Assembly: GCA_024653355.1 (NCBI GenBank)
Contig: JANLFQ010000003.1
Span: 74,944 to 138,943, forward strand
Source: a candidate division WOR-3 bacterium
GTDB taxonomy: Bacteria; Hydrothermota; Tepidihabitantia; Tepidihabitantales; Tepidihabitantaceae
Reading direction: 5' to 3'
Length of the DNA stretch: 64,000 nucleotides
The translations under genes and the position numbers were made by a program. How positions within the stretch are numbered: position 1 is the first letter of the stretch; each line of letters begins with the position of its first letter. Positions 2,755-61,372 of the stretch are shown here, in pieces. A model generated the notes under the pieces. That model did no database searches and had not been told where the DNA came from. It saw only the letters and a program-made list of their open reading frames with translations.

Positions 2755-2782
2755 TTGACTGGTAGATATTTGATTTTATAAT
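2755..2782 (+). promoter_or_regulatory. sigma70-type promoter (TTGACT-16-TATAAT) abutting the ABC ATPase start codon
   Basis: -35 2755-2760, -10 2777-2782; a second TATAAT at 2789-2794; ATG at 2793. Confidence 0.45.
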
Positions 2783-2792
2783 GCAGTCTATA

Positions 2793-5457: not shown

Positions 5458-5478
5458 ATTATCAGAACAGGAGACGAT

Positions 5479-6015: not shown

Positions 6016-6056
6016 TGGTGGATGATATGCTTGACAGCCGATTTGATAAGTCTATA

Positions 6057-6608
6057 ATGCGTTTAGTGTTTAAGAAGGTCCGCACCGCCTCGGGTTTTAC
6101 CCTCATTGAACTTTTAGTCGTGATATCGGTCCTCGGTATCCTGATGGCTTTCTTTTTCCCGACGATGATTTCCCGGATTACAAACAACACCCGCCGTACC
6201 GCGACCATTCAGGAGATGAACGCGCTGCGCGAAGCGATTGTCGGCAATCCCGATGTGCGAGTTGGCGGGGAGATTGTTGGTACCGGTTTTAAGCAGGATG
6301 TGGGGAGACTGCCGCGGCACCTGATTGAACTTGTTACCCGTAATCCGTTTGACGGTATGTATGCGCAGGTAATGTACCTTGGCAAGGAAACACTTCCGGG
6401 CTGGGACCCGTATATTCAGAAAGGGTGGAATGGTCCTTATATTCGCGAAGACGGTCAGATGGGTTATCTTTATGATGCCTGGGGAACCCCTTATCAATAC
6501 TGGGTAGAAAACAACGAGACGCTTGGTTTAAAAAGCGCCGGTCCGGATGGTCTTTTTTATGGTCAGCCCGGAGCGGTCAAGGATGACGATATTAAGATGA
6601 GGTTTTAA
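6057..6608 (+). CDS. GspG/PulG-like pseudopilin
   Basis: Prepilin N-terminus ...SGFTLIELLVVISVLGIL; GspG-like motif DAWGTPYQY; start uncertain (ORF opens at 6015; ATG 6027 and 6057 are alternatives). Confidence 0.75.
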   Translation: MRLVFKKVRTASGFTLIELLVVISVLGILMAFFFPTMISRITNNTRRTATIQEMNALREAIVGNPDVRVGGEIVGTGFKQDVGRLPRHLIELVTRNPFDGMYAQVMYLGKETLPGWDPYIQKGWNGPYIREDGQMGYLYDAWGTPYQYWVENNETLGLKSAGPDGLFYGQPGAVKDDDIKMRF

Positions 6609-17420: not shown

Positions 17421-17565
17421 ATACTTCCTCCTCTTTTTAGTGCTTATGTTTTGCGGAGGAGTTCCTTTTTACCCCTCCGTTCCGTAAGTGCCATTATTAA
17501 AATAATATACAAATTCGGTCCGGTGTCAAACTGTTCGTTTTCTTGACAACCAAACTTAATCTCTT

Positions 17566-18300
17566 ATGGTTAGTAAATTTATGGAACAGCCAAGGGCACA
17601 AAAAAGGGTAATTTCAATTGTATTAAGCGGGTTTTTACTCATCGGCGTAATTGCCATTTTTTTGTTTTTAAACAGGTATTTGGGCCGCTACTTCCGCAAT
17701 CCTGAAGAGTTGCGTGTTCTGGTGAAAAACTGGGGGTTATGGGCGCCCTTGGGGATTGTGGTTTTACAACTTATTCAGATTGTGTTTGCACCCCTGCCTG
17801 GTAACTTGATGGCGTTTGCCGGTGGTTATGTCCTTGGTTTCTGGCCCACGATTGTCTGGCTGGTTATCGGGGTTTTAATCGGTGCCACAGTTGCCTTTTT
17901 TATTGCAAGGGTTTCGGGCCGGCAACTGCTGAAGATGTTTGTGCCCGAAGATACACTGGCGCGGTTTGACTCGCTGGTTGTGCGCAAGGGCGTTTTCTAC
18001 ATTTTTTTGTTAATCCTTGTGCCCAATCCGCTTGGCGACTGGGTTTACTATCTTGCGGGTTTGACCAAGATGCCGTTGTTCTTATTCCTTTCCCTTGTCT
18101 TTATCGCCCGGCTTCCGAGTAACATTCTGGAGTGCTGGGTTGGTGCGAGTGCGGTTAGGTTCGGGTACAGGGAGTGGGCGATTTTGGGCGTGATTGCTTT
18201 GATATTTACCGCAGTTTATCTTACAAATCAGAAACGGATTGAGAAACTTCTCCAGCGGGTGGCTGAGAAAGGGAGTAACAAAAGCGCGGCAGGAGATTGA
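17566..18300 (+). CDS. TVP38/TMEM64 (DedA-related) family membrane protein
   Basis: Multi-pass membrane protein with ...VFAPLPGNLMAFAGGYVLGFW motif; true start may be ATG 17581. Confidence 0.75.
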   Translation: MVSKFMEQPRAQKRVISIVLSGFLLIGVIAIFLFLNRYLGRYFRNPEELRVLVKNWGLWAPLGIVVLQLIQIVFAPLPGNLMAFAGGYVLGFWPTIVWLVIGVLIGATVAFFIARVSGRQLLKMFVPEDTLARFDSLVVRKGVFYIFLLILVPNPLGDWVYYLAGLTKMPLFLFLSLVFIARLPSNILECWVGASAVRFGYREWAILGVIALIFTAVYLTNQKRIEKLLQRVAEKGSNKSAAGD

Positions 18301-18811
18301 GTTGTTTATCGGTTGAACTCGCTCACCGTTTATCGCTTCTATTCTGACAGGGATAGGAGTTAACGGAAACCACCGCTGACACTGCTGAACCATAAAAAGA
18401 GAGGTGTTAGCGTCAAAAGAGTAAGCGGATTTGCTGATGATAAAGCGGTGCCTCTTCCGATAAGTCTCAGAATTTAAAGCGGATAGGGTGGGGGAAAGCG
18501 TTCAGCAGGTGAATCGATAAGCGAATCAGGGAACGACTCCCAGAGCGGTTCCCAGAGTGGCATACCGAGACCTTATCAGGGTTATGTCAGGATATAAAGC
18601 CCGATTCAAATAAGTAATGATTTTTAATAGTGTTAGCATCACAAAGATTTGGGAAATGGCGGGCGCCGATATTAACTCTGGTTGAGTCAGGCTTATCAGA
18701 ATAAAAGTTAAGTTATTTTGGGAACGAACTGCTGTGACCGGGGTTAATTATATTTTCCAGTAATCTCATCCTGTTGACAGTTGATGATAACTATTTATTC
18801 TACATAGGAAG

Positions 18812-20149
18812 ATGTTGCAGAAGGTGCTGGTTGCCAATCGGGGCGAGATTGCCCTGCGGATTGTGCGGGGTTGTGCTGACCTCGGGATAAAGAGTGTGGT
18901 TGTTTATTCGGAGGCAGACCGGGAGGCGTTGCCGGTTCTGATTGCCGAGGAGAAGATGTGCATCGGTCCGGCAGCGGCAAGCGGTTCTTATCTTAACTTC
19001 TCCCGGGTGTTATCGGTAGCCCTGGTTAAAGGTTGCGATGCGGTTCATCCCGGTTACGGTTTTCTTTCCGAAAACGCCGACTTTGCGGAGGCGGTTATCG
19101 CTTCAGGTTTGATTTTTGTGGGACCAAAACCGGATACGATCCGGCTCCTGGGCGATAAGATGATGGCGCGGCAGCGAATGAAGGCGGCAGGTGTGCCGGT
19201 TGTACCGGGTTCGGATGGTGCACTGGCGGATTTCCGTTCCGCGATTAAACTGGCAAAGGAGATTGGTTTCCCGGTTTTGCTCAAGGCAGCGGCAGGCGGT
19301 GGTGGTAAAGGGATGCGGGTCATCAACGATGAAAGCGAGATGGAAGCGGGTTGGAATTTGTGCCAGGGTGAGGCGCGGGCATCTTTTGGCGATGACCGGT
19401 TGTATCTGGAAAAGTACATCACCAACGCCCGGCATATTGAAGTGCAGATTCTTGCCGATAACAAGGGGAACTGTGTGAGTCTGGGAGAACGGGACTGTTC
19501 TGCACAGCGCCGGCATCAGAAGTTACTTGAAGAGAGTCCGGCGCCAGGGATTACGGCCGAGTTGAGGCAGAAGTTGGGTGACTGGGCAAAGCGGGCAGCA
19601 CAGGCGGCGGGTTATGTGAGCGCGGGCACGGTTGAGTTCATCTGTGATGAGTCCGGAAGCTGCTACTTTATGGAGATGAACGCCCGGCTTCAGGTTGAGC
19701 ATCCGGTGACAGAGATGGTTACCGGTGTTGATATTGTTGGTGAGCAGTTGAAAATCGCCGGGGGCGAGAGGTTACACATCAAGGAACAGCCTGATTGGCC
19801 AAGAGGTCATGCGATTGAATGCCGGATTTATGCCGAGGACCCGGATGACGATTTTAAACCTTCCCCGGGACTGGTCACCGACCTTGTCTTTCCCGGGGGT
19901 CCGGGGGTTAGAGTTGACAGTTATATCTATCCGGGTTATCGGGTGCCACCGTTTTACGACCCGCTCGTTGCCAAAATCGTTGCCTGGGGTCGGGACCGGG
20001 AGGAAGCGGTGCGACGGATGGAGCGGGCGCTGGCAGAGACAACTATTGGCGGGATTGCGACGACGATTGAGTTCCACCGGCGGTTGCTGTCAAGTCCGCG
20101 ATTCCGCAAAGGTAATTTGACAACAACATTGCTGGACGATGTTTGGTAA
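18812..20149 (+). CDS. accC: Biotin carboxylase (acetyl-CoA carboxylase subunit)
   Basis: MLQKVLVANRGEIALRIVR..., ATP-grasp motifs, 445 aa. Confidence 0.92.
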   Translation: MLQKVLVANRGEIALRIVRGCADLGIKSVVVYSEADREALPVLIAEEKMCIGPAAASGSYLNFSRVLSVALVKGCDAVHPGYGFLSENADFAEAVIASGLIFVGPKPDTIRLLGDKMMARQRMKAAGVPVVPGSDGALADFRSAIKLAKEIGFPVLLKAAAGGGGKGMRVINDESEMEAGWNLCQGEARASFGDDRLYLEKYITNARHIEVQILADNKGNCVSLGERDCSAQRRHQKLLEESPAPGITAELRQKLGDWAKRAAQAAGYVSAGTVEFICDESGSCYFMEMNARLQVEHPVTEMVTGVDIVGEQLKIAGGERLHIKEQPDWPRGHAIECRIYAEDPDDDFKPSPGLVTDLVFPGGPGVRVDSYIYPGYRVPPFYDPLVAKIVAWGRDREEAVRRMERALAETTIGGIATTIEFHRRLLSSPRFRKGNLTTTLLDDVW

Positions 20150-20243: not shown

Positions 20244-20271
20244 TTGACCACAATTGGGCGTTTTCTATAAT
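20244..20271 (+). promoter_or_regulatory. sigma70-type promoter (TTGACC-16-TATAAT) abutting the valS start
   Basis: -35 20244-20249, -10 20266-20271, ATG at 20280. Confidence 0.45.
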
Positions 20272-20279
20272 TGAGGATA

Positions 20280-22901
20280 ATGTCGGAAGAGAATCATACC
20301 AATTTCCCACCCCGCTATGACCCGAAACCGGTTGAGGAAAAGTGGTACCGGTTCTGGGAGGAGAACGGGTTTTTTACCGCAAATCCTGAATCACCGAAGC
20401 CAAAGTTTTCGATTGTAATTCCCCCGCCCAATGTGACCGGCTCATTGCATATGGGGCACGCCCTGGACAACACTTTGCCTGATATCCTGATTCGGCGGAA
20501 AAAGATGCAGGGGTTTGAAACGCTCTGGCTACCGGGAACCGACCATGCCGGCATCGGCACGCAGGTCAAGGTTGAGCAGATGCTGGCGAAGGAGGGCAAG
20601 ACCCGATTTGACCTCGGACGGGAGGAGTTTCTGCGGCGTGCCTGGGAGTGGAAGGAGAAGTACGGGAATGAGATTGTGAAACAGTTGCGGCGCTTGGGAT
20701 GTTGTCTTGATTGGAGCCGGTTTCGCTTCACCCTTGATGAGGTGTGTGCCCGGGCGGTGCGCGAGGCTTTTGTCCGCTATTATGAAAAGGGGTTGATCTA
20801 CCGCGGTCTGCGGATTGTTAACTGGTGTCCGCGCTGCCGGACCGCACTCTCGGATTTAGAGGTTAAGTATCAGGAGGAAAAGAGCCAGTTGTGGTATATC
20901 CGTTATCCGTATGCCGATGGCACGGGCGGTGTGACCGTCGCGACCACCCGACCGGAGACGATGCTCGGTGATACCGCGGTGGCGGTCAATCCCGAAGACA
21001 AGCGTTATCAGGCGGTGGTGGGAAAGATGCTGCGCCTTCCCTTGACAGAACGGCTGATTCCCATCGTGGCGGATGAAGCGGTAGAGATGGATTTTGGGAC
21101 CGGGGCGGTCAAGGTAACACCAGCCCATGACCCGGTTGACTTTGAAATCGGGGAACGGCACGGGCTGGCGCGGCTCAAGGTGATTGACGATGATGGTAAG
21201 ATGACAGCGCTGGTGCCGGCAAAGTATCAGGGGATGACGCGGGAAGAGTGTCGCCGGGCAGTGGTGGAAGACCTTAAAGAGCAGGGGCTGCTGGAGAAGA
21301 TTGAGGATTATGAGCATGCGGTTGGGACCTGTGACCGGTGTGGCACCGCGATTGAACCGCTGGCGAGTGAGCAGTGGTTTGTGAAAATGAAGCCGCTTGC
21401 TGAGCCGGCAATCAGGGTTGTAGAGGAGGGCAAGGTCCGTTTTTATCCGGAACGGTGGAACAAGGTTTATCTTGACTGGATGCGTAATGTTAAGGACTGG
21501 TGCATTTCCCGGCAGTTGTGGTGGGGGCATCGGATTCCGGTCTGGTACTGTGATTGCGGGAAGGTTATCGTTGCCCGCGAGGACCCGGTTGAATGTCCGG
21601 ACTGTCATAGTAAGAGTTTGCGCCAGGATGAGGATGTCCTTGACACCTGGTTTTCTTCTGCCCTCTGGCCCTTTGCCACGATGGGCTGGCCCGAAGAGAC
21701 GATTGATTATCGGACATTCTTTCCCACGGACTTTTTGACCACCGACCCGGACATCATCTTTCGCTGGGAGGCGCGGATGATTTTCTCCAGTCTGGAGTTT
21801 ACGGGTCGAATTCCATTTGTTGATGTTTACATTCACTCAACCGTTTTAGACAAAACCGGCGCCCGGATGAGCCGTTCCAAAGGAGTTGGTGTTGACCCGC
21901 TGGAGATTATTGAGCATTACGGGACCGATGCCTGTCGGTTTACCATCGCCTATCTGGAAAGTCAGTCCCAGAGTTATCGGTTGTGGAACGAACGGTTTGA
22001 ACTGGGCAGGAATTTTGCCAATAAGGTATGGAACGCATGCCGGTTAGTGGCACCGCATATCACCGGCATCAATAGCGTGTTTTTGGACCCGAACGAATTG
22101 ACGGCACTGGACAACTGGGTGGTGATGCGGTTCAACGAAACCCTGGAGCGGGTGGATAAGGGCATAGACAGTTACACATTTTCCACCGTGGCGCAAGCGC
22201 TTTACGACTTTTTCTGGCACGACCTGTGTGATTGGTATCTGGAGTTTGCCAAACGCCGTTTGAAAGCCCAAGACAACACGGTTAAAGCGGTGCTATATCA
22301 TCTCTTTCGGGGTTCGTTGCAAATGCTGCATCCGATTATGCCCTTCATTACCGAGGAGTTGTGGCACAGATTGGAGATGGGCGGCAGGTCAATTCTTGAA
22401 TCCTCCTGGCCCAAACCCCTACCGGCAAAATCGGACACGCTCTGGTTGGTGGAACGGATGCGAGATGTTATCGGTGGTATCCGGCAGGTGCGGGCGGAGA
22501 TGCGCGTGCCGGCAAAGAGCACCGTAGAGTGCATTGTGAATACCGGGAACGAAGAACTGGCGAAATTCCTTAAAGAGCAGGAGTTGTTAATCTGTGAACT
22601 GGCAAAGGTGAGCACGGTAAAGTTCGGTTCGACGCGTCCCCGAGGTTCGGCGGTGATTGTGTTTTCCGATTGTGAGATTTATGTGCCGCTTTCCGGTGTG
22701 GTTGATGTTGAGAAGGAACTGGAACGGTTAAGGCGGGAAGTTGGGGAACTCGAGAGGTTAATCGCTGAGATTGACCGGCGGCTTGGTAATCCCGATTTCC
22801 TGGAACGGGCAAAAAATGAGGTTATTGAGCGGGAGCAGGCGCGGCGGGAGGAGTTTGCGGCGCGGCGGGAGCGGCTGAAGAGGATTCTGGAGGTTTATTA
22901 A
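20280..22901 (+). CDS. valS: Valine--tRNA ligase
   Basis: Class I HMGH motif (PPPNVTGSLHMGHA), KMSKS-type motif, C-terminal coiled coil; 874 aa. Confidence 0.93.
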   Translation: MSEENHTNFPPRYDPKPVEEKWYRFWEENGFFTANPESPKPKFSIVIPPPNVTGSLHMGHALDNTLPDILIRRKKMQGFETLWLPGTDHAGIGTQVKVEQMLAKEGKTRFDLGREEFLRRAWEWKEKYGNEIVKQLRRLGCCLDWSRFRFTLDEVCARAVREAFVRYYEKGLIYRGLRIVNWCPRCRTALSDLEVKYQEEKSQLWYIRYPYADGTGGVTVATTRPETMLGDTAVAVNPEDKRYQAVVGKMLRLPLTERLIPIVADEAVEMDFGTGAVKVTPAHDPVDFEIGERHGLARLKVIDDDGKMTALVPAKYQGMTREECRRAVVEDLKEQGLLEKIEDYEHAVGTCDRCGTAIEPLASEQWFVKMKPLAEPAIRVVEEGKVRFYPERWNKVYLDWMRNVKDWCISRQLWWGHRIPVWYCDCGKVIVAREDPVECPDCHSKSLRQDEDVLDTWFSSALWPFATMGWPEETIDYRTFFPTDFLTTDPDIIFRWEARMIFSSLEFTGRIPFVDVYIHSTVLDKTGARMSRSKGVGVDPLEIIEHYGTDACRFTIAYLESQSQSYRLWNERFELGRNFANKVWNACRLVAPHITGINSVFLDPNELTALDNWVVMRFNETLERVDKGIDSYTFSTVAQALYDFFWHDLCDWYLEFAKRRLKAQDNTVKAVLYHLFRGSLQMLHPIMPFITEELWHRLEMGGRSILESSWPKPLPAKSDTLWLVERMRDVIGGIRQVRAEMRVPAKSTVECIVNTGNEELAKFLKEQELLICELAKVSTVKFGSTRPRGSAVIVFSDCEIYVPLSGVVDVEKELERLRREVGELERLIAEIDRRLGNPDFLERAKNEVIEREQARREEFAARRERLKRILEVY

Positions 22902-24861: not shown

Positions 24862-25971
24862 TTACTGGTGCCGGCGGGTCTTGGTTCCGAACTCAACCAG
24901 CTCTCTAAACCCTTTGGGGTCAAACGCTGAAGAGATGGCGGTTTCGTAGGTGACCTTGCCCGCGCGGTAAAGTTCAGCCAGATAGGCGTCAAAAGAGATA
25001 CTACCTTCGGCGCTGCTGGTTTGAATGGCTGAAGGCAGGTGTTCGATTTTACGCTCCCGGATAAGGTTGCGGACCGCTGGAGTTGCCATCATCACCTCGT
25101 AACAACCGATTCGACCTTTACCCTCGGCACGGAGTAAGAGGCGCTGGGAGAAGATGGCGAGAAGGGAGATGGAGAACTGGATACGAATCTGGTCCCGGAT
25201 TTCCGGTGGGAAGATGTCGATAAACCGGGTAACGGTTTCCGGTGCGTTGGTGGTGTGGAGGGTGCCAATGACAAGGTGGCCCGATTCAGCAGCCCAGATT
25301 GTTGCTTCGGCGGTGGCGAGGTCACGAATTTCGGCAACCAGAATCACATTGGGGTTGGAACGTAACCCCTTCATAATCGCTTCCCGGAAGCTGGAAACAT
25401 CAACTCCAACCTCGCGCTGGGTGATAATACCCTTTTTGTGGTCGTGAACGAATTCAATCGGGTCTTCAATTGTCAAAACATGGCGCGGGCTTTCAAGGAT
25501 GTAATCAACAAAGGTCGCCTGAGTGGTTGTTTTTCCCATTCCCGTAGGACCGGTTACGAGAATTAAACCGTGAGGACGGTCAAGGAGCGACTTGATGCGC
25601 GGTATGAGATGGGTGGGTACAAACAGTTCTTCGAATGAGAGTATGCGCCGCGGGATGAGACGAAGGGCGAGCCCGAAATACCCCTTCTGTTTATAGACTG
25701 CAACCCGGAACCGAGCCATATTCTTAAAGTTAAGAGCAAAGTCACCACCGCCACCGTTGTCAATCTGGGCGCGCAGATGGCGCAGGTCCTTGGTGGCGAT
25801 GTTTTTGAAACTTTCCGTTTTCTCCGGAGTCAGGACCGGGTAACCTTCAATTGACTGCAGAAATCCATCGATACGAAATGTTGGCGGGCGCCCCACCGTG
25901 AGATGGAGGTCGGATGCGTTCCGGCGAATGCACTCCGCAAGGAGTGTCTCAAAGAATTCTTCGTCCGACAT
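24862..25971 (-). CDS. PilT/PilU-family twitching-motility ATPase (second copy)
   Basis: Walker A GPTGMGKTT, PilT signature AVRNLIRERKIEHLPSAIQTS; minus-strand TTGACA-16-TATAAT ends 10 nt before the ATG. Confidence 0.88.
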   Translation of the reverse strand: MSDEEFFETLLAECIRRNASDLHLTVGRPPTFRIDGFLQSIEGYPVLTPEKTESFKNIATKDLRHLRAQIDNGGGGDFALNFKNMARFRVAVYKQKGYFGLALRLIPRRILSFEELFVPTHLIPRIKSLLDRPHGLILVTGPTGMGKTTTQATFVDYILESPRHVLTIEDPIEFVHDHKKGIITQREVGVDVSSFREAIMKGLRSNPNVILVAEIRDLATAEATIWAAESGHLVIGTLHTTNAPETVTRFIDIFPPEIRDQIRIQFSISLLAIFSQRLLLRAEGKGRIGCYEVMMATPAVRNLIRERKIEHLPSAIQTSSAEGSISFDAYLAELYRAGKVTYETAISSAFDPKGFRELVEFGTKTRRHQ

Positions 25972-26100
25972 CGCTAATCGTATTATACCCCCCTGAACCC
26001 ATCTGTCAAGCAGATGTCACATTCAAATATGGGGGCAATTTTAGCCGAACGGGCATCAATTCTGATTTGATTTAAGTTGGAAAGTAATGTTAATTTGTTC

Positions 26101-26130
26101 TTGACAGGCAGGGGCGATGGTTTTATATTA
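26101..26130 (+). promoter_or_regulatory. sigma70-type promoter for tRNA-Gly
   Basis: TTGACA at 26101-26106, ~17-18 nt spacer, TATATT/ATATTA. Confidence 0.5.
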
Positions 26131-26140
26131 AAACGGGATT

Positions 26141-26211
26141 GCGGCCATAGCTCAGGGGTAGAGCCCCGGCTTCCCAAGCCGGTTACACGGGTTCGATTCC
26201 CGTTGGCCGCT
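26141..26211 (+). tRNA. tRNA-Gly (anticodon CCC)
   Basis: Cloverleaf: acceptor GCGGCCA/TGGCCGC, anticodon loop TTCCCAA, T-loop TTCGATT, discriminator U; CCA not encoded. Confidence 0.9.
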
Positions 26212-28130: not shown

Positions 28131-28697
28131 TTACGCCGGCAGGTCAAACGAACTTTTTTCAACTCTGTTCGGGAAGATAAGTTCGATGATTTCAATTAGA
28201 ATGCCAAACAGGGCACCAAATAGCGCACCGATAGTAAATTGGTAGGTAAGCAGGTTACGGTGAAACTCCTGACCGGTGTGGAACTGAAAAAGCAGGACAA
28301 CGGTTAGATGAGCCAAACCCACGACGAGTGCCATAATGAGAAATTTGCCGAGCCGGATGCGGTGAAGGAGTTTGAACAGGTAGCCGGCGATGATGAACGA
28401 TAAACCTACCGGTGTTGCCCAGAGTGCGGCACGAATCGCCGCTGCGGTGCGTAATGGTGGTGTCAGGGCGAGTTGAACGAAAAATAGTAATACGACCATC
28501 AGTAGCGCATAACTCAGACCCCGTAGTTGGACCGCGGCGTAAATTAAACCACCTGCCAAGCCCAGGATGATTAATGGAAGCATCGGGAAATTGGTAATCC
28601 GGCGGGCAGCGAGAAACATCCGACAGAGCACGCTCGCGCCGAGTCCGGCAATAATATAGGCAAAGGTCCAGAGCGTCTCCCGGGTTGCTTTTGTCAT
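28131..28697 (-). CDS. Integral membrane protein
   Basis: Five to six hydrophobic helices. Confidence 0.55.
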   Translation of the reverse strand: MTKATRETLWTFAYIIAGLGASVLCRMFLAARRITNFPMLPLIILGLAGGLIYAAVQLRGLSYALLMVVLLFFVQLALTPPLRTAAAIRAALWATPVGLSFIIAGYLFKLLHRIRLGKFLIMALVVGLAHLTVVLLFQFHTGQEFHRNLLTYQFTIGALFGALFGILIEIIELIFPNRVEKSSFDLPA

Positions 28698-28741
28698 AAA
28701 ATATCATCGGGTATTAAGCGCTGATGTCAAGAATACCGCGG

Positions 28742-28770
28742 TTGACAAATAGATGGGATTGGTCATTATA
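28742..28770 (+). promoter_or_regulatory. sigma70-type promoter (TTGACA-17-ATTATA) abutting the serpin start
   Basis: -35 28742-28747, -10 28765-28770, ATG at 28778. Confidence 0.45.
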
Positions 28771-28777
28771 TTCAGGT

Positions 28778-29974
28778 ATGAACACCATCATTTTGATTGT
28801 CAGTCTTTTCTTATCCGCTTCGCGAGGAGCGGAAACCGGGGTAATTGATGCAGAGCTGGTTTCAGCAAAGAACGAGTTTGGGTTCAAGGTTCTTTCAGCA
28901 CTTGTCAGTACAGCGCCGCAGGAAAATGTGTTTATCTCGCCTTACAGTATTGCCACTGCTTTGACAATGACCTATAATGGTGCTGCCGGTTCCACCCGTA
29001 CCGCAATGGGGGCAACGCTTGGTGTTGGTGGTTTAGAGGTTCAGCGGCTTAACACCGGAGAAAAATTTCTTGCTGCAAGATTGCAGAGTGCTAAACCGGG
29101 TCTGGAACTGTTGATTGCTAACTCGCTCTGGGCGAGGAAAGGGGTGGCGTTTAATTCCGCTTTTTTGAACACTAACAAGGAGTTTTATCAGGCGGTGGTG
29201 GCGACGATTGATTTCAATAGCCCGGATGCAGCGAAAAAGATTAACCAATGGGTAAAGGATAAGACAAAAGGGAAAATCGACAAGGTCGTTGACCGGATTA
29301 AACCTGAGGCGGTGCTCTTTTTAATCAATGCGGTTTTCTTTAAGGGCAGATGGCAGGAGAAGTTCGACCCCAGGAACAGTCAGGATGATAAATTTTATCC
29401 GGATGATGCCCAACCGGTGCTTGTGAAGATGATGATGCGTTCGGGTAAATTCCGCTATCTGGAAACCGCGGAGTTTCAGGCGGTGGAGTTGCCTTACGAT
29501 GAGGGCAAGGTTAGTATGCTGATATTTTTACCGGCCCGCGGTAAACTGGACAGTTTGATTTCCCATCTGTCATCTTCCACCTGGCAGGAGTGGTGGAGCA
29601 GATTTCGGTCACGGGAGGGAACGGTTTGGTTGCCACGCTTCAAAATGGAGTATGAGAAGAGTTTAAAAGAGGTTTTAACAGAATTGGGGATGGGCGTGGC
29701 GTTTGACCTGAATCAGGCCGATTTTTCTTTAATGGGTAAAGGCGGTCCGGGTTTTGCCATCGGTGATGTGAAGCATAAGAGTTTTGTTGAAGTCAATGAA
29801 GAGGGCACGGAGGCGGCTGCGGTGACATCGGTGGAAATGGTTCTTGCGTCGGTACCTCCGCAACCTCGTTTTGAGATGGTTATCAATCGACCTTTCCTCT
29901 TCGCAATCCAGGATAATGAAACCGGCACAATTTTATTTCTCGGTGCAATGCGAAACCCCGCAGCGCATAATTAA
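28778..29974 (+). CDS. Serpin-family serine protease inhibitor, secreted
   Basis: Signal peptide MNTIILIVSLFLSA; serpin C-terminal motifs (...FVEVNEEGTEAAAVT... reactive-centre loop, ...NRPFLFAIQDNETGTILFLGAMRNP). Confidence 0.85.
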   Translation: MNTIILIVSLFLSASRGAETGVIDAELVSAKNEFGFKVLSALVSTAPQENVFISPYSIATALTMTYNGAAGSTRTAMGATLGVGGLEVQRLNTGEKFLAARLQSAKPGLELLIANSLWARKGVAFNSAFLNTNKEFYQAVVATIDFNSPDAAKKINQWVKDKTKGKIDKVVDRIKPEAVLFLINAVFFKGRWQEKFDPRNSQDDKFYPDDAQPVLVKMMMRSGKFRYLETAEFQAVELPYDEGKVSMLIFLPARGKLDSLISHLSSSTWQEWWSRFRSREGTVWLPRFKMEYEKSLKEVLTELGMGVAFDLNQADFSLMGKGGPGFAIGDVKHKSFVEVNEEGTEAAAVTSVEMVLASVPPQPRFEMVINRPFLFAIQDNETGTILFLGAMRNPAAHN

Positions 29975-30756: not shown

Positions 30757-30917
30757 CAGATTATTTAGTGCTACAATAAGAGAGTACTTTTTTCCTTTGC
30801 CCTGTCAAGAAACCCTTGCCCTGGTAGTAGTTTTATAAAATAATCCAATCAATTTATAACTGTTAATATTACAGAAAGATAGGCAACTGTCGCAGTGAAT
30901 AAAGGGTTGTCGCACAT

Positions 30918-30946
30918 TTGACTGATATTACTATTTTTGCTATAAT
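30918..30946 (+). promoter_or_regulatory. sigma70-type promoter (TTGACT-17-TATAAT) abutting the kinase/EBP start
   Basis: -35 30918-30923, -10 30941-30946, ATG at 30954; direct repeat TGTCGCA at 30888 and 30908 just upstream. Confidence 0.5.
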
Positions 30947-30953
30947 TCACACA

Positions 30954-33900
30954 ATGACGCAGCGGGGAAGTGGTGAAAATTTACAATTTTCTCAACCCGT
31001 TGGTGACCGGTATTACATTGAAGAAATCCTTGGTGGAGGAGAAACTACTGAGGTTTATCGGGTTCGCGACATTGTTACGGGCCGGTACCTCGCGCTGAAA
31101 ACGGTACGTAGCGGGTGTCCTGAAGAAGAAAATGTAAGATTAAGCCGGGAATTTTTTTACCTTTCCCAAATTTCTCATCCCGGTGTGGTGGCGGTTCACG
31201 ACTATGGCAGAATTACGGATGGTCGAGCCTATTTCACAATGGAGTATATCCCCGGAGTGCCGATAACCCGCTATTTTGGTGGTGGTTACGACCCGCGCTT
31301 AAACGATGTCATTGTGCAGATTCTTTTGGCACTGGATGCAATCCACGCCCAGGGAATGATACACTGCGATTTAAAACCCGAGCATATTCTGGTTGTTGAG
31401 GACGAGGGGAAATTCAGCGTCAAACTGCTCGATTTTGGGTTTGCCGAGGATTTTTGTATCGTAGGTCCGAAAAATGGAAAAGGCACACCTGGTTATGTAG
31501 CACCCGAGATACTGAAAGGGGTTGATTCTGATGTGCGGGCTGACCTTTACGCATTAGGGATGGTTATTTACGAGACATTAACGGGTATTGGTCCAGGAAG
31601 AGGGGCGGACCTTCTTGATTGGCTGAGGAAACAGCAACAAGGTGATTTTGCACCCCCTCGTTCCTTCAATTCTGATATCCCGGATAAACTGGACCGACTG
31701 GTGATGAAACTGATTAGCCCGCGTCCGGAGCAGCGACCGGCATCGGCACAAGCGGCCATTGAGGAGTTGATTGGCGAGAACTTGTCTAATGTTGCATTGC
31801 CGGCGTTGCGGCGGGACATAATGGCTTCCGGGTTTGTTGCCCGGGAAGAGATTCTTCAAAAGTTAAAAGAGATTTTGCGATTTGTTGCTGATGGTCAGTC
31901 GAGTGTGGTTTGTATTTCCGGTGACCGGGGTGTGGGTAAGAGCCGGCTGCTTGCTGAGTTCAAATTTTATGCAGAAATGGAGGGAGCATCGGTATTCTCT
32001 TTCGAGCCCGTGTCGCTCAACGCCCGTTCTCAGTCGCTTATCGAGGCGCTGGTTGGGCTCTTGCGTAGCTACGGCCATACCGGAGCACCATTAATTTCGG
32101 TGGATGCGGGCAGGGAGAGTAACTACCGTTTGTTTGAGTGGGTAACTCAACGATTGAAACTGGTGGCAAACTCCCATCGGATAAAACACAGTTTGGTAAT
32201 TATTGTGGATGACTTTGAACTTTTTGACCCGACAAGTCTGGATTTACTCCGTTACCTGGCGTTGGGGGTTGATACGGAACGGGTGATGCTCGTGGTGACC
32301 GGGCTGAAAGAAAAACGCTTTCTGGATACGATTGATGGGATTAAGCACCGTGCTAATTTTCAACACATCGTTATTCCACCTTTTAAACGGGATGAGGTTA
32401 AAGAACTGGTGCTTTCCATATTAGGAAAGGTGCAGGATGTTGAACCTTTGATAGACTGGCTGTTTGAATTTACCGGCGGTAACCCGCTCTGGGTGGTGGA
32501 AACAATTTATGAGTTGATTGAAGATAAAATTTTGGTTAGAGAAATGTCGGGATGGAATCTGGCTAAAGACCGGCTGGCGGCTTTCCGCCCGCCACCATCA
32601 ATTAGTGATACAATCCGCCAGCGCGTTGAATCGTTAACCCCGGAGGAAAAATCGGTCCTGGAGATTGCGGCAGCGGCTGCAGGGCCTTTTACTCTTAAGT
32701 TGGTGCGGGCGGCGCTTAACCTTGAAGAGAAGGTTTTATTTAAGGCGATTAACCGACTCAAGGGGCTTGGTTTTCTCAGGGCGTTCCGTGCCGCATGCCC
32801 GGAAGACAAATTCAGTTTTTCTCCGGGCTGGGTTCTCTCAAGTAAGATTCTCGAAAGCGTAATAGTTGAACGGCTGTCGGTTGAGGAACGGCGTGAGAAC
32901 CATCGTAAAGTGGCGCTGGCTCTGGAGTTGCTTTATCCAGAACGAGTACCGGAGATGGTTTTTGACCTGGCACACCACTGGACACTTGCTGGTGTGCGGG
33001 ACCGGGCTTATGACTACTCACTTCGCGCCGGGGCAAGAGCTAGGGAGTGGTTGCTCTTCGAGCAGGCGCTGGCGTTTTATGAAAACGCACTCAGCCTTTC
33101 AGCCGGTTTGATTACGGCGCGGGAGCGTGTTGGTTTGTTGGAGAAGGTTGGTGAACTGCGGGAACTGACCGGCAGATTTGCTGAGGCGATTGACATATAT
33201 CGTCAGGGTATGGGGCTGGCGGTTGCTGAATCGGAACTTGCCCGGGATAAAAAGTTTCTTGCCCGATTTCTGCGTCGGCTCGGGCTGGTGTATCAAAAAC
33301 AGGGGCTGGTAGCGGATGCGATAAACCTTTTGAATCAATCGCTTCATTTATTATCGGAAGACAGTTTGGAGCGGGCACGGCTTCTTGCCGACCTTGGTTG
33401 GTCCTATTGCGGGTCAGGAGATTTTAGCCATGCGGAGGAGGTTTTGACCACTGCTCTGCAACTGGCAGAAAAATTGAAGTCAACTGTGACCGTTGAAGCC
33501 AATCGGCTGGTGGGTTTGATACTTTACTACTTTGCGGTTCTTGCCTGGGCAAAATACGATTTTGTGCTGGCATTGCAGCTGGCGGAGCGAGCGCTGGATG
33601 TTTTTGAGCGTTTAGAAGAAGAGATAATGAAAGCAACGGTGAGTCAGTTTATAGCAACGCTTTACACTCGCCGGGGAGAAGCGGAAAAGGCAAAGGAGTT
33701 TTATCAGCGGGCTGTTGCGTGCCAGCGCCGGGCGGGTGCGGTTTATTATCTGCTTACATCGTTACAGGGGTTAGGTTTACTGTCTCTTGATGAGGGCGAG
33801 TGGAACCAGGCAGAGCAGTATTTCAAAGAGGCGCTGAAGATCGCGGAGCAAGTAGGCAACCTATCCGACCAAGTTAATCTCTATACGATGCTGGGTGGAG

Positions 33901-40851: not shown

Positions 40852-42228
40852 TTAATTCTCTGCCTGTTGTTTCAGATAGGTCTTGAGGTACTCCAAGCCC
40901 TCTTCTTTCGTTTTGATTTTGCCTTCAACCTGCAGGTCTTCAAGTTCCTGTAAGATGACCTTAAACACCGGACCGGGCTTTAACCCGAGAGCAATCAGGT
41001 CGTCACCGGTGACCAGCCGCTTGATTTTCGCTTTGGCTTCTTCGGCGCGCTTCTGGGCAATCATTCGGGTGATGGTTGCTTCAAGATGGTTTGTCCTGCC
41101 CGCGGTTGCCCAGCCATCGGCATAACAGAGAACCATTAAGCCCAATGCTTCTTCTCCCAGGTCGCGGAAAAAACGCCGGATTGCCCGTTCCGAAAGGTCG
41201 GGTGCGGTGGCAAGAAGGTGCAGGCGCATATGCTCCTTAACCAGGGTGCGGACGATTTTGGTTTGAGCGCGGGCAAGACGCAGCCGCTCGTGACAGATTT
41301 TGACGGTCAGTTTTGCGCCCAGACTGTCGTGGCCATAAAAGTGCATCTCACCAGACTCGTTGACAAAGCGGGTGTGGGGTTTGGCGATGTCGTGGAGCAG
41401 TCCGCCCAGTTTCAGCAGTGCGGCATGAAAAGGCAGCGCGAAATATTGCTGCCACTCGGGCAGGAAACGGGAGAAGAACCCGGGCTGGGAAATCAACTCT
41501 TCGATTTTTTCCACGGTGCGGAAGGTGTGCGACTTCAACTCTTCATCTTGCAAGAGGGGCGAAAGTTCGGGCATAATCTCCTCAAGGCGGTGCAGTTCGG
41601 CAAGTTTTATCAGATAAGAAACCGAACGGTTGGCTTCCAGGATACGGAGAAACTCCATGCCGATTCTCTCCGGCGCGGTATTTTTTAATGTGATGTCCTG
41701 TGCCTGTTCATAAACAGAGGGATGAACTGTGCAGTTGAGTTCCAGCGCCAGCCGCAGGGCGCGCAGCAAGCGCAGCGGGTCAAGGGCGAGCGATTGGTTC
41801 GATACGGGCCGAATCAATTTCTGCTTGAGGTCCGCTCTGCCGCCGAAGGGGTCAATAAGGGTATTTCCCTCGGGCAGTTCACAGGCGATAGCGTTCAGGG
41901 TGAAGTCGCGGCGTTTGAGGTCGTCAATGATAGTCAAGTTGCCAATGCCGTTGAAGTCAAGAGTGATTTTCTTGCGGTAAACAACCCGGGCTTCATCGTC
42001 CTTCTCTGATAAAACGACCAGTTTCCCTCGAACGGCGCGGGCAAACTCCCGGGCAAACTCGACCCCGGAACCGGAAACGGCAAAGTCAAAGTCGGCGGGT
42101 TCTCGCCCGAGCAGCAAATCCCGAATTGCGCCACCCACCAGAAACAGCCGGCGCGCGCCTTTAACCTTCAGGAGTCGGAGATAAATACTGCCTAAATTGT
42201 GTAGCGCCGGTTTGATATCGATATCCAC
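40852..42228 (-). CDS. tRNA nucleotidyltransferase (CCA-adding) / poly(A) polymerase family protein with HD domain
   Basis: Head-domain motif LVGGAIRDLLLGREPADFDFAV; HD domain in the C-terminal half. Confidence 0.8.
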   Translation of the reverse strand: MDIDIKPALHNLGSIYLRLLKVKGARRLFLVGGAIRDLLLGREPADFDFAVSGSGVEFAREFARAVRGKLVVLSEKDDEARVVYRKKITLDFNGIGNLTIIDDLKRRDFTLNAIACELPEGNTLIDPFGGRADLKQKLIRPVSNQSLALDPLRLLRALRLALELNCTVHPSVYEQAQDITLKNTAPERIGMEFLRILEANRSVSYLIKLAELHRLEEIMPELSPLLQDEELKSHTFRTVEKIEELISQPGFFSRFLPEWQQYFALPFHAALLKLGGLLHDIAKPHTRFVNESGEMHFYGHDSLGAKLTVKICHERLRLARAQTKIVRTLVKEHMRLHLLATAPDLSERAIRRFFRDLGEEALGLMVLCYADGWATAGRTNHLEATITRMIAQKRAEEAKAKIKRLVTGDDLIALGLKPGPVFKVILQELEDLQVEGKIKTKEEGLEYLKTYLKQQAEN

Positions 42229-42281
42229 TATTTCAGCATAACAGGAGAGAATGCAGGGTCAAGTTTGCTAATCGGAATTGC

Positions 42282-44843: not shown

Positions 44844-47156
44844 TTAGCGGGTGATGAGCACCTTAACCGTCGCTTTGCCGGGCACCTCTTTCATTGGCTG
44901 GATAAAGTAGACCCCAGGTGCAAGATGCCGGATGTCATTAACACCGGGCTGGAGATTGAGCACCTTCCGGCCGGAGATGTCAAAGAGAACACCGGTCTCA
45001 TTCCCGGGTAAAGACAGAGTGTAACGCACGACGGTTGGAATTAACCGGTCCTTAGAATTGCCCGCAATCTCGGGTGCGAGTCCAACAACGGTTGTGTCAC
45101 GGATGAAACAAACAACCGAACTGTTCGGTACCGCAACATAAACCCGGCGCTGGCTCGGGCTATGGACAATTGTTGCGGGATAATGGGGCAAATCGATAAC
45201 GGTAACGACCGAATCGGCACGGCAGTCAAACACCTTGACACTCTTACCATAGCGAAATGTGCCGTAAAGATAACCGGTGAGCGAATCGTAAACGATTTGA
45301 CTCAGTCTCGAGCCAATCGGGACCGAGTCTTCAATGCGGGGCCCGCTCGGGTTAATCACATAGAACTGGCTACCGGCTCCGCAGTAAAGCCGGTTGCGAA
45401 ATTGATTGTAGAACATCAAATCCGGTCCATACGGGAGCGGCAGAAAAGAGCGGATGGTGTGGGTGGAACAGTCAACAAAAAACAGTCCGTTGAGGTTCTC
45501 AACAGCACAGGCAAGGGCATTATCTTCCGGCAGATGGCAGACCGATAACGGTTTGCCACCCAATCCAATATGGGCGATTACCCGTCGGGTAACGACATCA
45601 AGCGCCACCAGTGAATACTGGTCAAAGATGGCGGATAGGTAAAGCCGGTGCAAAATCGGGAGATAACTGAGTATGCAGGGGTCCGCGCCGGCATATACCC
45701 AATCGATGACTGAATCCCAGGCACAGTTGATTATCGCAATGTCCTCAGACAGTGCGCAAAATAGGTGGTTCAGGTCTGGCGCATAAATTGCGCTGTTCGG
45801 TGTATCGTACAACGGTATTGTCTTACGCACCGTTTCGGCAGGACAGTCAATTGACACGATGGCGGTTTCTGATGGGATGAGGGCATAGAGGCGATTGCTT
45901 TCGGTAATGGGGATGATTTCTGAAGGGGCAGCGGGCAGTTTTATCGGGTTGTGGATGGTGCCGGTTGCGGCGTTTACGGGCATAATTTCATTTTGTTCGG
46001 TGCTGGCACAATAAACCCGTTCGGTACCCGAAAGATAGGCAAGGAGGTTTACCGGGAATATGGTGGGAACCTCCTTTACCACCTCACTGGTGCGGGCGTT
46101 GTATATCACCACCTGATGGCTATTGAGTTCCGCAGCATAGATTAAGTTGGCACGCGGGTTATAGCCCAGCCCCGCAGGATAGGAGCCGGGCGTCGGAATA
46201 ATCCGCACCACCTCATTGGTGACACCGTCAACAACGGCGATGTTATCAGTGGAACTCAAGGCGATGTAAACGAGGTTGTCAAGGGAGTCAAAAGTTAGCC
46301 CCCGCTGGTTTGTATTGAGGTAAATCCAGCGGATTAAAGTGTCGGCAAGGGCGTCGTAAACGCCAAACCAGTTACCATCCCAGTCGGCACAGTAAAACTT
46401 ATTACTGACGGTGTTCAGGCACATCAACCTCGGTCCATAACCAGCAAGAAGCCAGCGAATCACGGTATCCCGGTCGCAGTCAACAACGGTGATGTCCTCA
46501 TCGTAATCCTCCGCGATGTAAAGCCGGTTGGTGAGATGGTTGTAAAGCACGCCATAAGGTCCGGCACCGGAATAAAAGGTTTTAATCACACTGTCGGTTG
46601 AACAGTCAATTACCGCCACATCATCATTCTCCATCACGCAGTAAACCTTATTCACCCGATAGGCGCAGGTGATGTTATCACTATAGTATGGGAGGGCAAT
46701 CGTTCGGATTACAACTTCGCTGTCGCAATCCACGACCCAGACCGTTCGATAACCAACACAGTATATCCGGTTGAGGTTGGGGTTGTAGGTCAGGTCATAG
46801 CCGTAACCAGGCAGTTGAACAGTTCGGAGAACACGGTTGGCAGCGGCGTCAATTACAACCAACTGATTACCGCTCAGGATGTAAAGTTTATTATCCACTG
46901 GGTTGTAGGAAAAATTTCCAGCGTTGTCCGGCAGTTGAATTGAAGCGATTTTCCGGTTGGTGGTGCCATCAAGGACGCAGATAAGTGGGCTATTACTGCC
47001 GAAGATGAATACGGTGTTGTTGTTCGGGTTGTAAAAGATTCGGTTGGGATTTGCGGGAGCGGCAAACGAATCGGGCAGATAAACGGTCTTCTCCAGCCAC
47101 TGGGCGGAAACCGGTGTCGCCATCAGGGCGATGAGACAAAAAAACCACCGGCGCAT
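44844..47156 (-). CDS. YVTN-type beta-propeller repeat protein with T9SS C-terminal sorting domain
   Basis: Signal peptide; repeated ...N.VYVA... beta-propeller blades; C-terminal ...VLFDISGRKVLNL...APGVYFIQP. Confidence 0.75.
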   Translation of the reverse strand: MRRWFFCLIALMATPVSAQWLEKTVYLPDSFAAPANPNRIFYNPNNNTVFIFGSNSPLICVLDGTTNRKIASIQLPDNAGNFSYNPVDNKLYILSGNQLVVIDAAANRVLRTVQLPGYGYDLTYNPNLNRIYCVGYRTVWVVDCDSEVVIRTIALPYYSDNITCAYRVNKVYCVMENDDVAVIDCSTDSVIKTFYSGAGPYGVLYNHLTNRLYIAEDYDEDITVVDCDRDTVIRWLLAGYGPRLMCLNTVSNKFYCADWDGNWFGVYDALADTLIRWIYLNTNQRGLTFDSLDNLVYIALSSTDNIAVVDGVTNEVVRIIPTPGSYPAGLGYNPRANLIYAAELNSHQVVIYNARTSEVVKEVPTIFPVNLLAYLSGTERVYCASTEQNEIMPVNAATGTIHNPIKLPAAPSEIIPITESNRLYALIPSETAIVSIDCPAETVRKTIPLYDTPNSAIYAPDLNHLFCALSEDIAIINCAWDSVIDWVYAGADPCILSYLPILHRLYLSAIFDQYSLVALDVVTRRVIAHIGLGGKPLSVCHLPEDNALACAVENLNGLFFVDCSTHTIRSFLPLPYGPDLMFYNQFRNRLYCGAGSQFYVINPSGPRIEDSVPIGSRLSQIVYDSLTGYLYGTFRYGKSVKVFDCRADSVVTVIDLPHYPATIVHSPSQRRVYVAVPNSSVVCFIRDTTVVGLAPEIAGNSKDRLIPTVVRYTLSLPGNETGVLFDISGRKVLNLQPGVNDIRHLAPGVYFIQPMKEVPGKATVKVLITR

Positions 47157-48038
47157 AACACCTCCTTTTTACGACCAGATTGTAAGGCGAATTCAGTTAA
47201 TTGTCAATTCGCCAGGCGCGGTTCAGGAGGCATAAACAAGTTCGGCATGGGTCAGGATATCCGGGGCAATTTTGTCCTCATAATGTCCTGTGTGTAGCAA
47301 GGGATAAGGTTGTAATAAACTATGTCCTTGATAAAACGGCACCGGTTTTAATAGAAGCCTTTGATGTGGTAGGGCGGTGTGTTTGGCGGCAACGGGCAAA
47401 AGAACAGCAGCCGGGCTGTTATACAATCAGGGTGCCGGGCACCTGTTTTGACGGTCCTGGACTGTTTTTGTCCGGTTCACTGCGGGTAAGACCACCCTGA
47501 GCCGCAGGTTTTTGCGGGTGAAGTGAAAAGATATTTTTGCGGAGCGAAATTTGGGCTGATTTTCAACTTAGTTTATATTCCTACTTCGGCCAAATAGCAA
47601 TTTTTATGTTATTAAATTTCTTACAAATATCCTTTTCATTTGCAAAACCACCTTTAGCAGTAGCAGAACCGATTTCAAAGGTTGTCATTTTTCGTCACAT
47701 CGGCGGAAAGCGCGTGAGTGTTTAAGAAATATATGTCTTTCATGGTATTCTATAAACTCCTCGTATACTCATCTTTTATCAGATACTTTGTTCCTTTGTA
47801 GCGATATAAGACACCATCACAATCCTAAAACAGTTGTCTGATTTTTTGAGGTCTATAAGTAGACAATACACACATAAGACTATTTCTTTCATACTAAATT
47901 AATACTTGTAAAAAGTCAAGATTTTTCTGACAATTGCCTGTTTTATTCTCAACGCCGGTAGTTTTGCCCGATAGCAAAAGGTGCCGGGTTGTTGGGAAGA
48001 GCATCGAAAGGTGAGGTATTGGGGTCTAATAGTGTAGT

Positions 48039-50588: not shown

Positions 50589-50611
50589 AAATTGGTGTTT
50601 TAAAAGTTTTT

Positions 50612-50685
50612 GTCGGGAGCAGGTATCCCTCCTTCCCAACCCACCAAAAACCCCCTTGTTTCCCTGCTCCCGACACCATTTTTAT
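50612..50685 (+). terminator. Long-loop hairpin with T-run downstream of clpB (putative terminator)
   Basis: 12-bp perfect inverted repeat GTCGGGAGCAGG (50612-50623) / CCTGCTCCCGAC (50663-50674) around a C-rich 39-nt loop, then ACCATTTTTAT. Confidence 0.45.
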
Positions 50686-56078: not shown

Positions 56079-56106
56079 TTGACAGGGAAAAAGTTTAGAT
56101 TATTAT
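56079..56106 (+). promoter_or_regulatory. sigma70-type promoter for tRNA-Asp
   Basis: TTGACA 56079-56084, 16-nt spacer, TATTAT 56101-56106. Confidence 0.45.
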
Positions 56107-56115
56107 TAGTTATTC

Positions 56116-56191
56116 GGGCCCGTAGTGTAGCCTGGTTTAACACGTCGCCCTGTCACGGCGAAGATCGCCAGTTCAAATCTGGTCGGGCCCG
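56116..56191 (+). tRNA. tRNA-Asp (anticodon GTC)
   Basis: Acceptor GGGCCCG/CGGGCCC, anticodon loop CTGTCAC, T-loop TTCAAAT, discriminator G. Confidence 0.9.
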
Positions 56192-56201
56192 TTGAATTTT
56201 G

Positions 56202-61314: not shown

Positions 61315-61372
61315 AAGCGGAGTTATAATAATCTACTATCCGCTGTTGTCAAGATAATTTGACAGTGGGGTA

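Follow-up and report, generated by a model that had tools for sequence, protein, structure and literature searches.

The subject of this analysis is a stretch of 64,000 nucleotides (nt) from a candidate division WOR-3 bacterium (GenBank assembly GCA_024653355.1, contig JANLFQ010000003.1, positions 74,944 to 138,943 of the forward strand), here called the window, and within it a set of sigma70-type promoters located directly in front of start codons. All positions given below are those of the window, and the distance between the end of a -10 hexamer and the start codon is referred to as the gap. The window has a GC content of ~51%. The promoter at 30918..30956 on the plus strand belongs to the gene of a protein designated kinase-EBP (coding sequence 30954-36203, 1749 amino acids), in which Pkinase, AAA_16 (STAND ATPase), TPR, GAF, Sigma54_activat and HTH_8 domains were detected using Pfam. 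Its -35 hexamer TTGACT (30918-30923) is followed by a spacer of 17 nt, the extended -10 element TGcTATAAT (hexamer 30941-30946), a gap of 7 nt and the ATG at 30954. Four more genes show the same layout. For an ABC ATPase (2755..2795, plus strand), TTGACT (2755-2760), a spacer of 16 nt and TATAAT (2777-2782) precede the ATG at 2793 with a gap of 10 nt. For valS (20244..20282, plus strand), the elements are TTGACC (20244-20249), a 16-nt spacer, TATAAT (20266-20271), a gap of 8 nt and the ATG at 20280. The gene of a PilT-family ATPase, pilT (25969..26009, minus strand), has a promoter with all 12 consensus positions matched, consisting of TTGACA (26009-26004), a 16-nt spacer and TATAAT (25987-25982), 10 nt ahead of the ATG at 25971. 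The serpin gene (28742..28780, plus strand) carries TTGACA (28742-28747), a 16-nt spacer and CATTAT (28764-28769), followed after 8 nt by the ATG at 28778.

These five genes had been named in an earlier reading of the same sequence, here called the original prediction, as having TTGAC and TATAAT-like boxes with a spacing of 16/17 nt that end 5-10 nt before the ATG. All five were found as described, except that the -10 box of the serpin gene had been placed one base off; the register ATTATA (28765-28770) was replaced by CATTAT one base to the left, and the serpin orthologs carry CATTAT or CATCAT. By direct reading of the sequence, all five sites are sigma70-type hexamer pairs with 10-12 of 12 matches to TTGACA and TATAAT and spacers of 16-17 nt. 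The gene identities agree with the Pfam matches (ABC_tran for the ABC ATPase, T2SSE for pilT, and Serpin), and the identity of valS was taken from its orthologs. The serpin product has a signal-peptide-like N-terminus, MNTIILIVSLFLSA. Also, the five genes had been described as lacking a Shine-Dalgarno (SD) sequence, and indeed no GGAGG-like motif was found 5-10 nt upstream of their starts, where the -10 box or the discriminator occupies the SD position. A GAGG located 3 nt ahead of the valS ATG was rejected as an SD site, being too close to the start codon and missing in the orthologs.

Directly upstream of the kinase-EBP -35 box, two direct copies of TGTCGCA were observed 20 nt apart (30888-30894 and 30908-30914). 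The ortholog at locus L082 of a WOR-3 relative, which is 66% identical, has two copies as well, 22 nt apart, and the motif occurs 16 times in the window vs 7.3 expected occurrences. It may represent a putative regulator binding site.

Six further genes of the window were found to have the same arrangement. For a hypothetical gene encoding 188 amino acids (28695..28730, minus strand), TTGACA (28730-28725), a 16-nt spacer and GATGAT (28708-28703) end 5 nt before the ATG at 28697. The 80-nt intergenic region between this gene and the serpin gene (28698-28777) consists only of their two back-to-back promoters of this type, with the -35 boxes 11 nt apart. The gene of a VTT/DedA-family membrane protein (17543..17583, plus strand) is preceded by TTGACA, a 16-nt spacer, TATGGT (17565-17570) and a gap of 10 nt to the ATG at 17581, and accC, encoding biotin carboxylase (18774..18814, plus strand), by TTGACA, a 16-nt spacer, TATTCT (18796-18801) and a gap of 10 nt to the ATG at 18812. 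A second promoter with 12 of 12 matches serves a prepilin-type protein (6031..6068, plus strand; TTGACA, 16-nt spacer, TATAAT at 6053-6058, gap 7 nt) starting with GTG at 6066. A GTG start is also found for a protein of the CCA-adding enzyme/poly(A) polymerase family (42226..42262, minus strand), at 42228 and 6 nt from the extended -10 element TGtTATGCT (-10 at 42240-42235), which lies 16 nt from TTGACC (42262-42257). Finally, for an S-adenosylmethionine (SAM) methyltransferase (61312..61352, minus strand), TTGACA (61352-61347), a 16-nt spacer and TATTAT (61330-61325) precede the ATG at 61314 with a gap of 10 nt. Taken together, gaps in the 11 window genes range from 5 to 10 nt, and an SD motif of at least 4 nt at -4 to -20 is absent in 10 of the 11, the exception being the GAGG of valS. 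Thereby, 11-12 of ~25 genes that come first in their transcription units are of the promoter-abutting type, and ~10 others are SD-led. This agrees with the original prediction that both types of initiation occur side by side, in roughly equal numbers among the genes first in their units.

For evaluation of the motif matches, the window was scanned for hexamer pairs scored by their matches out of 12 to TTGACA and TATAAT, and 200 dinucleotide-preserving shuffles of the window served as null. Pairs scoring 11 or 12 were observed 15 times compared to a shuffle mean of 0.39, which corresponds to a ~40-fold excess; with 12 of 12 matches, there were 4 compared to 0.005. The excess declines with the score: at least 10 of 12 matches were found 26 times vs 6.1 in the shuffles, and pairs with 9 of 12 matches are enriched only modestly (72 vs 48). 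A few pairs with 10 of 12 matches located inside genes are probably noise. In a positional test independent of the choice of start codons, 10 of the 26 matches with at least 10 of 12 were followed, after 5-10 nt, by a start codon that opens an open reading frame (ORF) of 60 codons or more. The expectation is 0.5 if only ATG is considered and 1.8 if ATG, GTG and TTG are considered, with binomial P values from 3e-11 to 4e-6.

The arrangement is conserved among orthologs. The closest relatives of valS are found in metagenome-assembled genomes of the candidate division WOR-3, with 70-77% amino-acid identity, and a metagenome scan with the PilT protein yielded ~55 orthologous loci with at least 75% identity. 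For pilT, 32 unique upstream regions of orthologs with at least 84% amino-acid identity show TTGACA, a spacer of 16-17 nt, TATAAT, a gap of 6-11 nt and ATG or GTG (in one case TTG). GTG starts were present in 8 of 29 leaderless-type pilT matches. All 14 unique WOR-3 upstream regions of valS keep TTGAC(C/A/G/T), a 16-nt spacer and TATAAT, with 7-9 nt to an ATG or GTG. The seven upstream regions of accC are all conserved (gap 7-10 nt), and the seven of the VTT gene have gaps of 6-14 nt, the 14 nt being found only in L081, a variant with a 4-nt insertion. Four upstream regions of the hypothetical gene, including those at L082 and L086, have gaps of 5-7 nt. For the serpin gene, three upstream regions have gaps of 6-8 nt, with TTGACA, a 16-nt spacer, CATCAT or CATTAT, 6 nt and ATG at L082 and L086. 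The three upstream regions of kinase-EBP (L136, L081 and L082) have gaps of 7-9 nt, and the one at L082 reads TTGACT, 16 nt, TATAAT, 9 nt, ATG. In the methyltransferase ortholog at L096, TTGACT and TATCAT are followed after 9 nt by ATG.

Information profiles were calculated from 29 anchored sequences for pilT and 10 for valS. The hexamers reach ~2 bits and the discriminator has ~0.1-0.6 bits in the two sets; over the upstream regions of the seven genes from pilT to kinase-EBP listed above, the values are ~2 bits for the hexamers and ~0-0.6 bits for spacer and discriminator. For pilT, the spacer has 0-0.8 bits and the 5 nt before the start 0.03-0.3 bits; the spacer values for valS, which is the smaller set, are higher, and T-rich positions just upstream of the -10 box are also conserved. 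From codon 2 onwards, the pilT profile shows a 3-base periodicity, the first, second and third codon position having 1.67, 1.89 and 0.90 bits, respectively. Invariant hexamers with drifting flanks, together with a periodicity that begins at codon 2, indicate that the promoter is functional and that the start codon has been assigned correctly. pilT orthologs at a greater distance (at most 80% identity, from low-GC lineages; L111, L112, L117, L129 and L130) have leaders of 30 nt or a AAGGAGAG site. Being SD-led or leadered, they indicate that the layout switches during evolution.

The scan was extended to 460 kb of WOR-3 loci, with the window excluded. There, 64 of 99 matches with at least 11 of 12 have the ATG or GTG of a long ORF at a gap of 5-12 nt, with a peak at 6-10 nt. 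As a control, 1.3 Mb from 77 valS loci of other phyla were scanned identically, and only ~6 of 88 such matches had gaps of 5-12 nt; the peak is absent in this 1.3 Mb, where the matches are spread over gaps of 20-40 nt. An artefact of the method as source of the peak was therefore rejected. When the window and the WOR-3 loci are combined, the 188 matches with at least 10 of 12 have a bimodal gap distribution: 106 show a gap of 5-12 nt, a smaller second peak stands at 22 nt, and the range of 13-21 nt holds only five matches, 13-15 nt being empty. The enrichment of -10 boxes close to starts, for which the original prediction had proposed a genome-wide count against shuffled sequence, was found as a clear excess in the 64-kb window and as a peak in the 460 kb from relatives. 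In the relatives, 14 distinct gene families show the arrangement, including LexA-, SmpB- and PurN-like proteins. Just upstream of the window, alaS has TTGCCT, a 16-nt spacer, TACAAT, 9 nt and ATG, and der is of like geometry. The genes served are mostly housekeeping or regulatory ones (valS, alaS, accC, pilT, CCA-adding enzyme and kinase-EBP, as well as LexA and SmpB in relatives). With respect to the spacer, 16 nt were observed in ~70% of the strong promoters (107 of 149 in the window and the WOR-3 loci) and 17 nt in most others; the optimum in E. coli is 17 nt.

The SD-led genes of the same organism have a stereotyped layout of their own. Classic SD sites, which had been noted for the pilins and the AAA ATPase, were confirmed with AAGGAGG at the prepilin start 2064 and AAGGAG at the AAA ATPase start 51967; sites of the AAGGAGG type, 4-9 nt from the start, are found at several genes, among them those of prepilins, of the AAA ATPase and of an OmpA-like protein, and SD sites were also seen at the starts 17420, 47156, 51129, 56017 and 60270. 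In the unit at 47154..47207 (minus strand), TTGACA, a 17-nt spacer and TACAAT are followed by 22 nt including AAGGAGG and by the ATG at 47156. Units of equal geometry are located at 4465-4518 (start 4516), 5429-5481 (start 5479), 43118-43067 (start 43069) and 56067-56015 (start 56017). The five share a distance of 21-22 nt from the -10 box to the start, which would leave a leader of ~15 nt holding the SD site only. Three of these five units start with GTG or TTG.

Both tRNA genes of the window are preceded by the same promoter type. For tRNA-Asp (56079..56192, plus strand), TTGACA, a 16-nt spacer and TATTAT end 8 nt before the 5′ end of the tRNA, and for tRNA-Gly (26101-26211), TTGACA, a 17-nt spacer and TATATT end 11 nt before the tRNA. 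tRNA genes with consensus promoters were also found in the WOR-3 loci L082, L085, L087, L096, L109 and L112. The distance from the end of the -10 box to the predicted tRNA 5′ end is mostly 7-12 nt and 7-18 nt across the loci. This predominance of 7-12 nt supports a start site ~7 nt after the -10 box and implies that 5′ leaders of ~1-5 nt are left for RNase P.

Based on these sequence data, we consider it very probable that housekeeping promoters (sigma70/sigmaA type) are positioned such that transcription starts at the start codon or 1-4 nt upstream of it, so that the mRNAs would be leaderless or nearly so. In the 64-kb window and the loci from close relatives, ~45% of the transcription units would be served by this layout. 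In E. coli, start sites are selected 6-10 nt after the -10 box, most often at 7 nt. If RNA polymerase with the housekeeping sigma factor likewise initiates ~6-10 nt past the -10 box, a gap of 5-9 nt would bring the first base of the start codon (A or G) into the start-site range and give a truly leaderless mRNA. This would apply to kinase-EBP (7 nt), valS (8 nt), serpin (8 nt), prepilin (7 nt), CCA-adding enzyme (6 nt) and the hypothetical gene (5 nt). For the genes with a 10-nt gap (ABC ATPase, pilT, VTT, accC and methyltransferase), a leader of 3-4 nt would be likelier than none. Since a leaderless or near-leaderless mRNA cannot hold an SD site, initiation would have to be SD-independent on a 5′-terminal or near-terminal AUG or GUG. 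SD-independent initiation on leaderless mRNAs has been shown experimentally in Actinobacteria and Deinococcus-Thermus. The remaining units would rely on strong AAGGAGG sites, often on the minimal leader of ~15 nt.

Several points weigh against leaderless mRNAs at all of these genes. The exact transcription start sites and the mode of ribosome recruitment are what we infer from the promoter positions. The gaps are broad (5-12 nt), and genes with 10-12 nt probably carry leaders of 1-5 nt rather than none. Additional upstream promoters yielding leadered transcripts are possible. Also, the anti-SD sequence was deduced from the AAGGAGG motifs alone. A 16S gene was sought upstream of the 23S-5S unit after extension of the locus, and none was found within 6 kb, so that the 16S gene is apparently not linked to the 23S-5S unit. 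The 23S-5S unit itself (window 1-1884; L160 6392-10000) has its own promoter with TTGACT, a 17-nt spacer and TATTAT, and is preceded by a gene for a SWIB-domain protein.

The alternative with the best standing accepts the promoters as real and assumes short-leadered transcripts, in which 1-5 untranslated nt precede a start codon that is recognized independently of SD sites and is not strictly 5′-terminal. We regard this as a serious possibility, though not the favored one. It is in line with the gap of 10 nt in 5 of the 11 window cases and of 10-12 nt in 27 of the 106 leaderless-type matches from the window and relatives, and with the similar distances at the tRNA promoters, where the mature 5′ end is in most cases 7-12 nt away. 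The other 79 matches, including kinase-EBP and valS, have gaps of 5-9 nt, so that the start codon begins 6-10 nt after the -10 box and inside the normal range of start sites, and this speaks against short leaders as the general case. Functionally, it is a sub-case of leaderless or near-leaderless initiation, since no SD site fits either way.

It is improbable that the genes are mainly expressed from other promoters further upstream, the abutting hexamers being secondary promoters or AT-rich unstructured elements that aid SD-independent initiation. Several intergenic regions would offer room for such promoters; those ahead of valS and accC measure 130-510 nt, and the one ahead of kinase-EBP 197 nt. 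However, an invariant TTGACA and an invariant TATAAT that keep a distance of 16-17 nt in dozens of species are a recognition signature of RNA polymerase and not of an mRNA element, and the sequence farther upstream of the promoters is not conserved among the orthologs. Furthermore, the 80 nt that separate the serpin gene from the hypothetical one are wholly filled by their two promoters, and the -35 box of the ABC ATPase gene is directly preceded by an intrinsic terminator (2716-2743).

A mis-assignment of the start codons, with true starts located downstream behind SD sites of their own and ordinary leaders, is very unlikely. Gene callers do disagree on several starts, but the disagreeing calls are longer and not shorter. 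In the NCBI annotation, for which the PGAP pipeline with GeneMarkS-2+ is used, the promoter-proximal starts are taken for the ABC ATPase (320 amino acids), VTT (239 amino acids), serpin (398 amino acids) and prepilin (180 amino acids, GTG 6066) genes. Calls by JGI and Logan are often longer, with 324 amino acids for the ABC ATPase (some Logan calls), 244 for VTT (JGI), 416 for the serpin and 197 or 193 for the prepilin, and these longer versions start inside or upstream of the promoter. Thus, the expectation that the promoter pattern helps to fix start codons held, as the NCBI starts agree with it and the rival longer calls run into promoters. In 7 of the 11 genes, the chosen start is the first one in the ORF, or the sole earlier one sits inside the promoter hexamers. 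The alternative ATG at 2781 for the ABC ATPase and the one at 17566 for VTT are both inside the -10 box. TTG 30918 was rejected as kinase-EBP start because it is part of the -35 hexamer, as was TTG 20271 as valS start, which is part of the -10 box. For kinase-EBP, no alternative start exists within 240 nt, and the next start of valS is more than 150 nt away. In pilT and valS, not only the codon periodicity but also the conservation of the amino-acid sequence begins at codon 2. The Pfam matches start close to the N-terminus, at residue 1 for accC, 5 for pilT, 21 for the kinase (Pkinase) and 28 for the CCA-adding enzyme (PolyA_pol). The accC start is fixed by the match of Biotin_carb_N over residues 1-110 of 110, and since PolyA_pol begins at residue 28, use of the next start, GTG 42138, would truncate the domain in the CCA-adding enzyme. 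From the sequence evidence, the start codons are judged to be correctly placed at the promoter-proximal ATG or GTG.

When started at GTG 6066, the prepilin has a leader peptide of 10 residues before G|FTLIE. The ATG at 6015, which is the start of the JGI version with 197 amino acids, lies in the same frame and overlaps the stop codon of the upstream prepilin gene (TAATG, 6013-6017). A longer, translationally coupled prepilin isoform with a leader peptide of 27 residues is possible alongside the leaderless GTG form.

Finally, that the hexamer pairs are chance matches in a genome of variable AT content is hardly conceivable, since the weak excess at 9 of 12 matches and the probable intragenic noise are outweighed by the dinucleotide shuffles at scores of 11 and above, the positional coupling (P < 1e-5) and the conservation across species, and this origin was rejected.

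Two further observations concern other parts of the window. A perfect 12-of-12 promoter with extended TG (TTGACA, 17 nt, TGtTATAAT) is located at 50373-50401 on the plus strand inside the 3′ end of clpB (48039-50588). It lies 190 nt ahead of the stop codon of this gene and has no ORF behind it; by chance, a window would contain only 0.005 perfect matches. Downstream, at ~50611-50675, a perfect 13-bp stem followed by a T-run resembles a terminator (z = -4.2), and an Rfam search of this region gave no match. Judging from these elements, the promoter could drive a candidate small RNA from the clpB 3′ end. The GC skew is positive in every 4-kb bin of the window (+0.07 to +0.23) regardless of gene orientation, which is consistent with a single replication arm.

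Beyond the single promoters, the data tentatively suggest a globally compact promoter-to-gene layout in a clade of WOR-3 bacteria, although we would not put this broader view ahead of narrower ones. About half of the units would be leaderless or have a leader of at most 4 nt (including 5′-proximal GUG and occasionally UUG), SD-led units would have uniform leaders of ~15 nt, the -10 box and the start being 21-22 nt apart, and tRNA 5′ leaders would be only ~1-5 nt long. If this is true, the clade would represent a mid-GC counterpart, with full-consensus promoters, of the situation in Actinobacteria and Deinococcus, and its translation apparatus would be tuned to efficient leaderless or near-leaderless initiation, which is unreported in the WOR-3 phylum. 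A full-text search of the literature library used found no paper joining "leaderless" and "WOR-3". With the promoter finding, an uncultured mid-GC phylum would be added to the lineages making heavy use of leaderless mRNAs. For annotation, it matters that Prodigal-style calls extend several of these WOR-3 proteins into their own promoters (324 vs 320, 244 vs 239, 416 vs 398 and 197 vs 180 amino acids), and that the promoter-to-ATG geometry fixes N-termini and thereby the serpin signal peptide and the prepilin leader peptide. The clean and conserved promoter set can also be used in modelling promoters, predicting operons and heterologous expression, and the pilT orthologs, which switch between leaderless and SD-led layouts, form a natural series in which the conversion of one initiation mode into the other can be studied.

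Compared to E. coli-type sigma70 promoters with SD-led mRNAs, the consensus is identical and AAGGAGG is used at many WOR-3 genes as well, but the WOR-3 promoter abuts the start codon, and SD-led leaders have only ~15 nt. Typical 5′-untranslated regions in E. coli have ~20-40 nt or more. In their frequent GTG starts, the leaderless-type WOR-3 orthologs are closer to mycobacteria than to E. coli; mycobacterial translation of leaderless mRNAs requires a 5′-terminal ATG or GTG, which is also sufficient (Shell 2015, PMC4633059).

The closest known counterparts are the genomes with "TA-led" genes, in which leaderless genes are recognized by a TANNNT box ~6-12 nt ahead of the start (Zheng 2011, PMC3160421), and the "group C" genomes of GeneMarkS-2 (Lomsadze 2018, PMC6028130). 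For both, a Pribnow box ~6-12 nt from the starts of genes first in operons has been described, with 25-50% of the operons being leaderless and SD sites at other genes. With these (Mycobacterium, Streptomyces, Corynebacterium and Deinococcus-Thermus), the WOR-3 genes share the -10 box ~6-12 nt from first-in-operon starts, the lack of SD sites there, coexisting SD-led genes, ATG and GTG starts, and the switching of orthologs between leaderless and leadered forms, which has been described for other phyla (Zheng 2011, PMC3160421). They differ in that the WOR-3 genome is mid-GC (~51%), whereas group C genomes with code 11 are almost all high-GC (bioRxiv 10.1101/2022.07.25.500264), and in that both hexamers have the full consensus (TTGACA, mostly a 16-nt spacer, and TATAAT) and not a bare TANNNT. 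For Mycobacterium tuberculosis, a distance of 6-8 nt from the -10 box to the start is reported; in WOR-3 it varies more widely, from 5 to 12 nt, and peaks at 6, 8 and 10. TAtaaT-type -10 boxes near starts have also been found in Aquificae and Chloroflexi, with genomes of 40-60% GC (Zheng 2011, PMC3160421); these are other phyla, and that survey is without a conserved -35 box or conservation at the level of orthologs. What is seen in the WOR-3 genomes is very probably a leaderless architecture well known from other phyla, in a lineage for which it was undescribed, and not a new mechanism.

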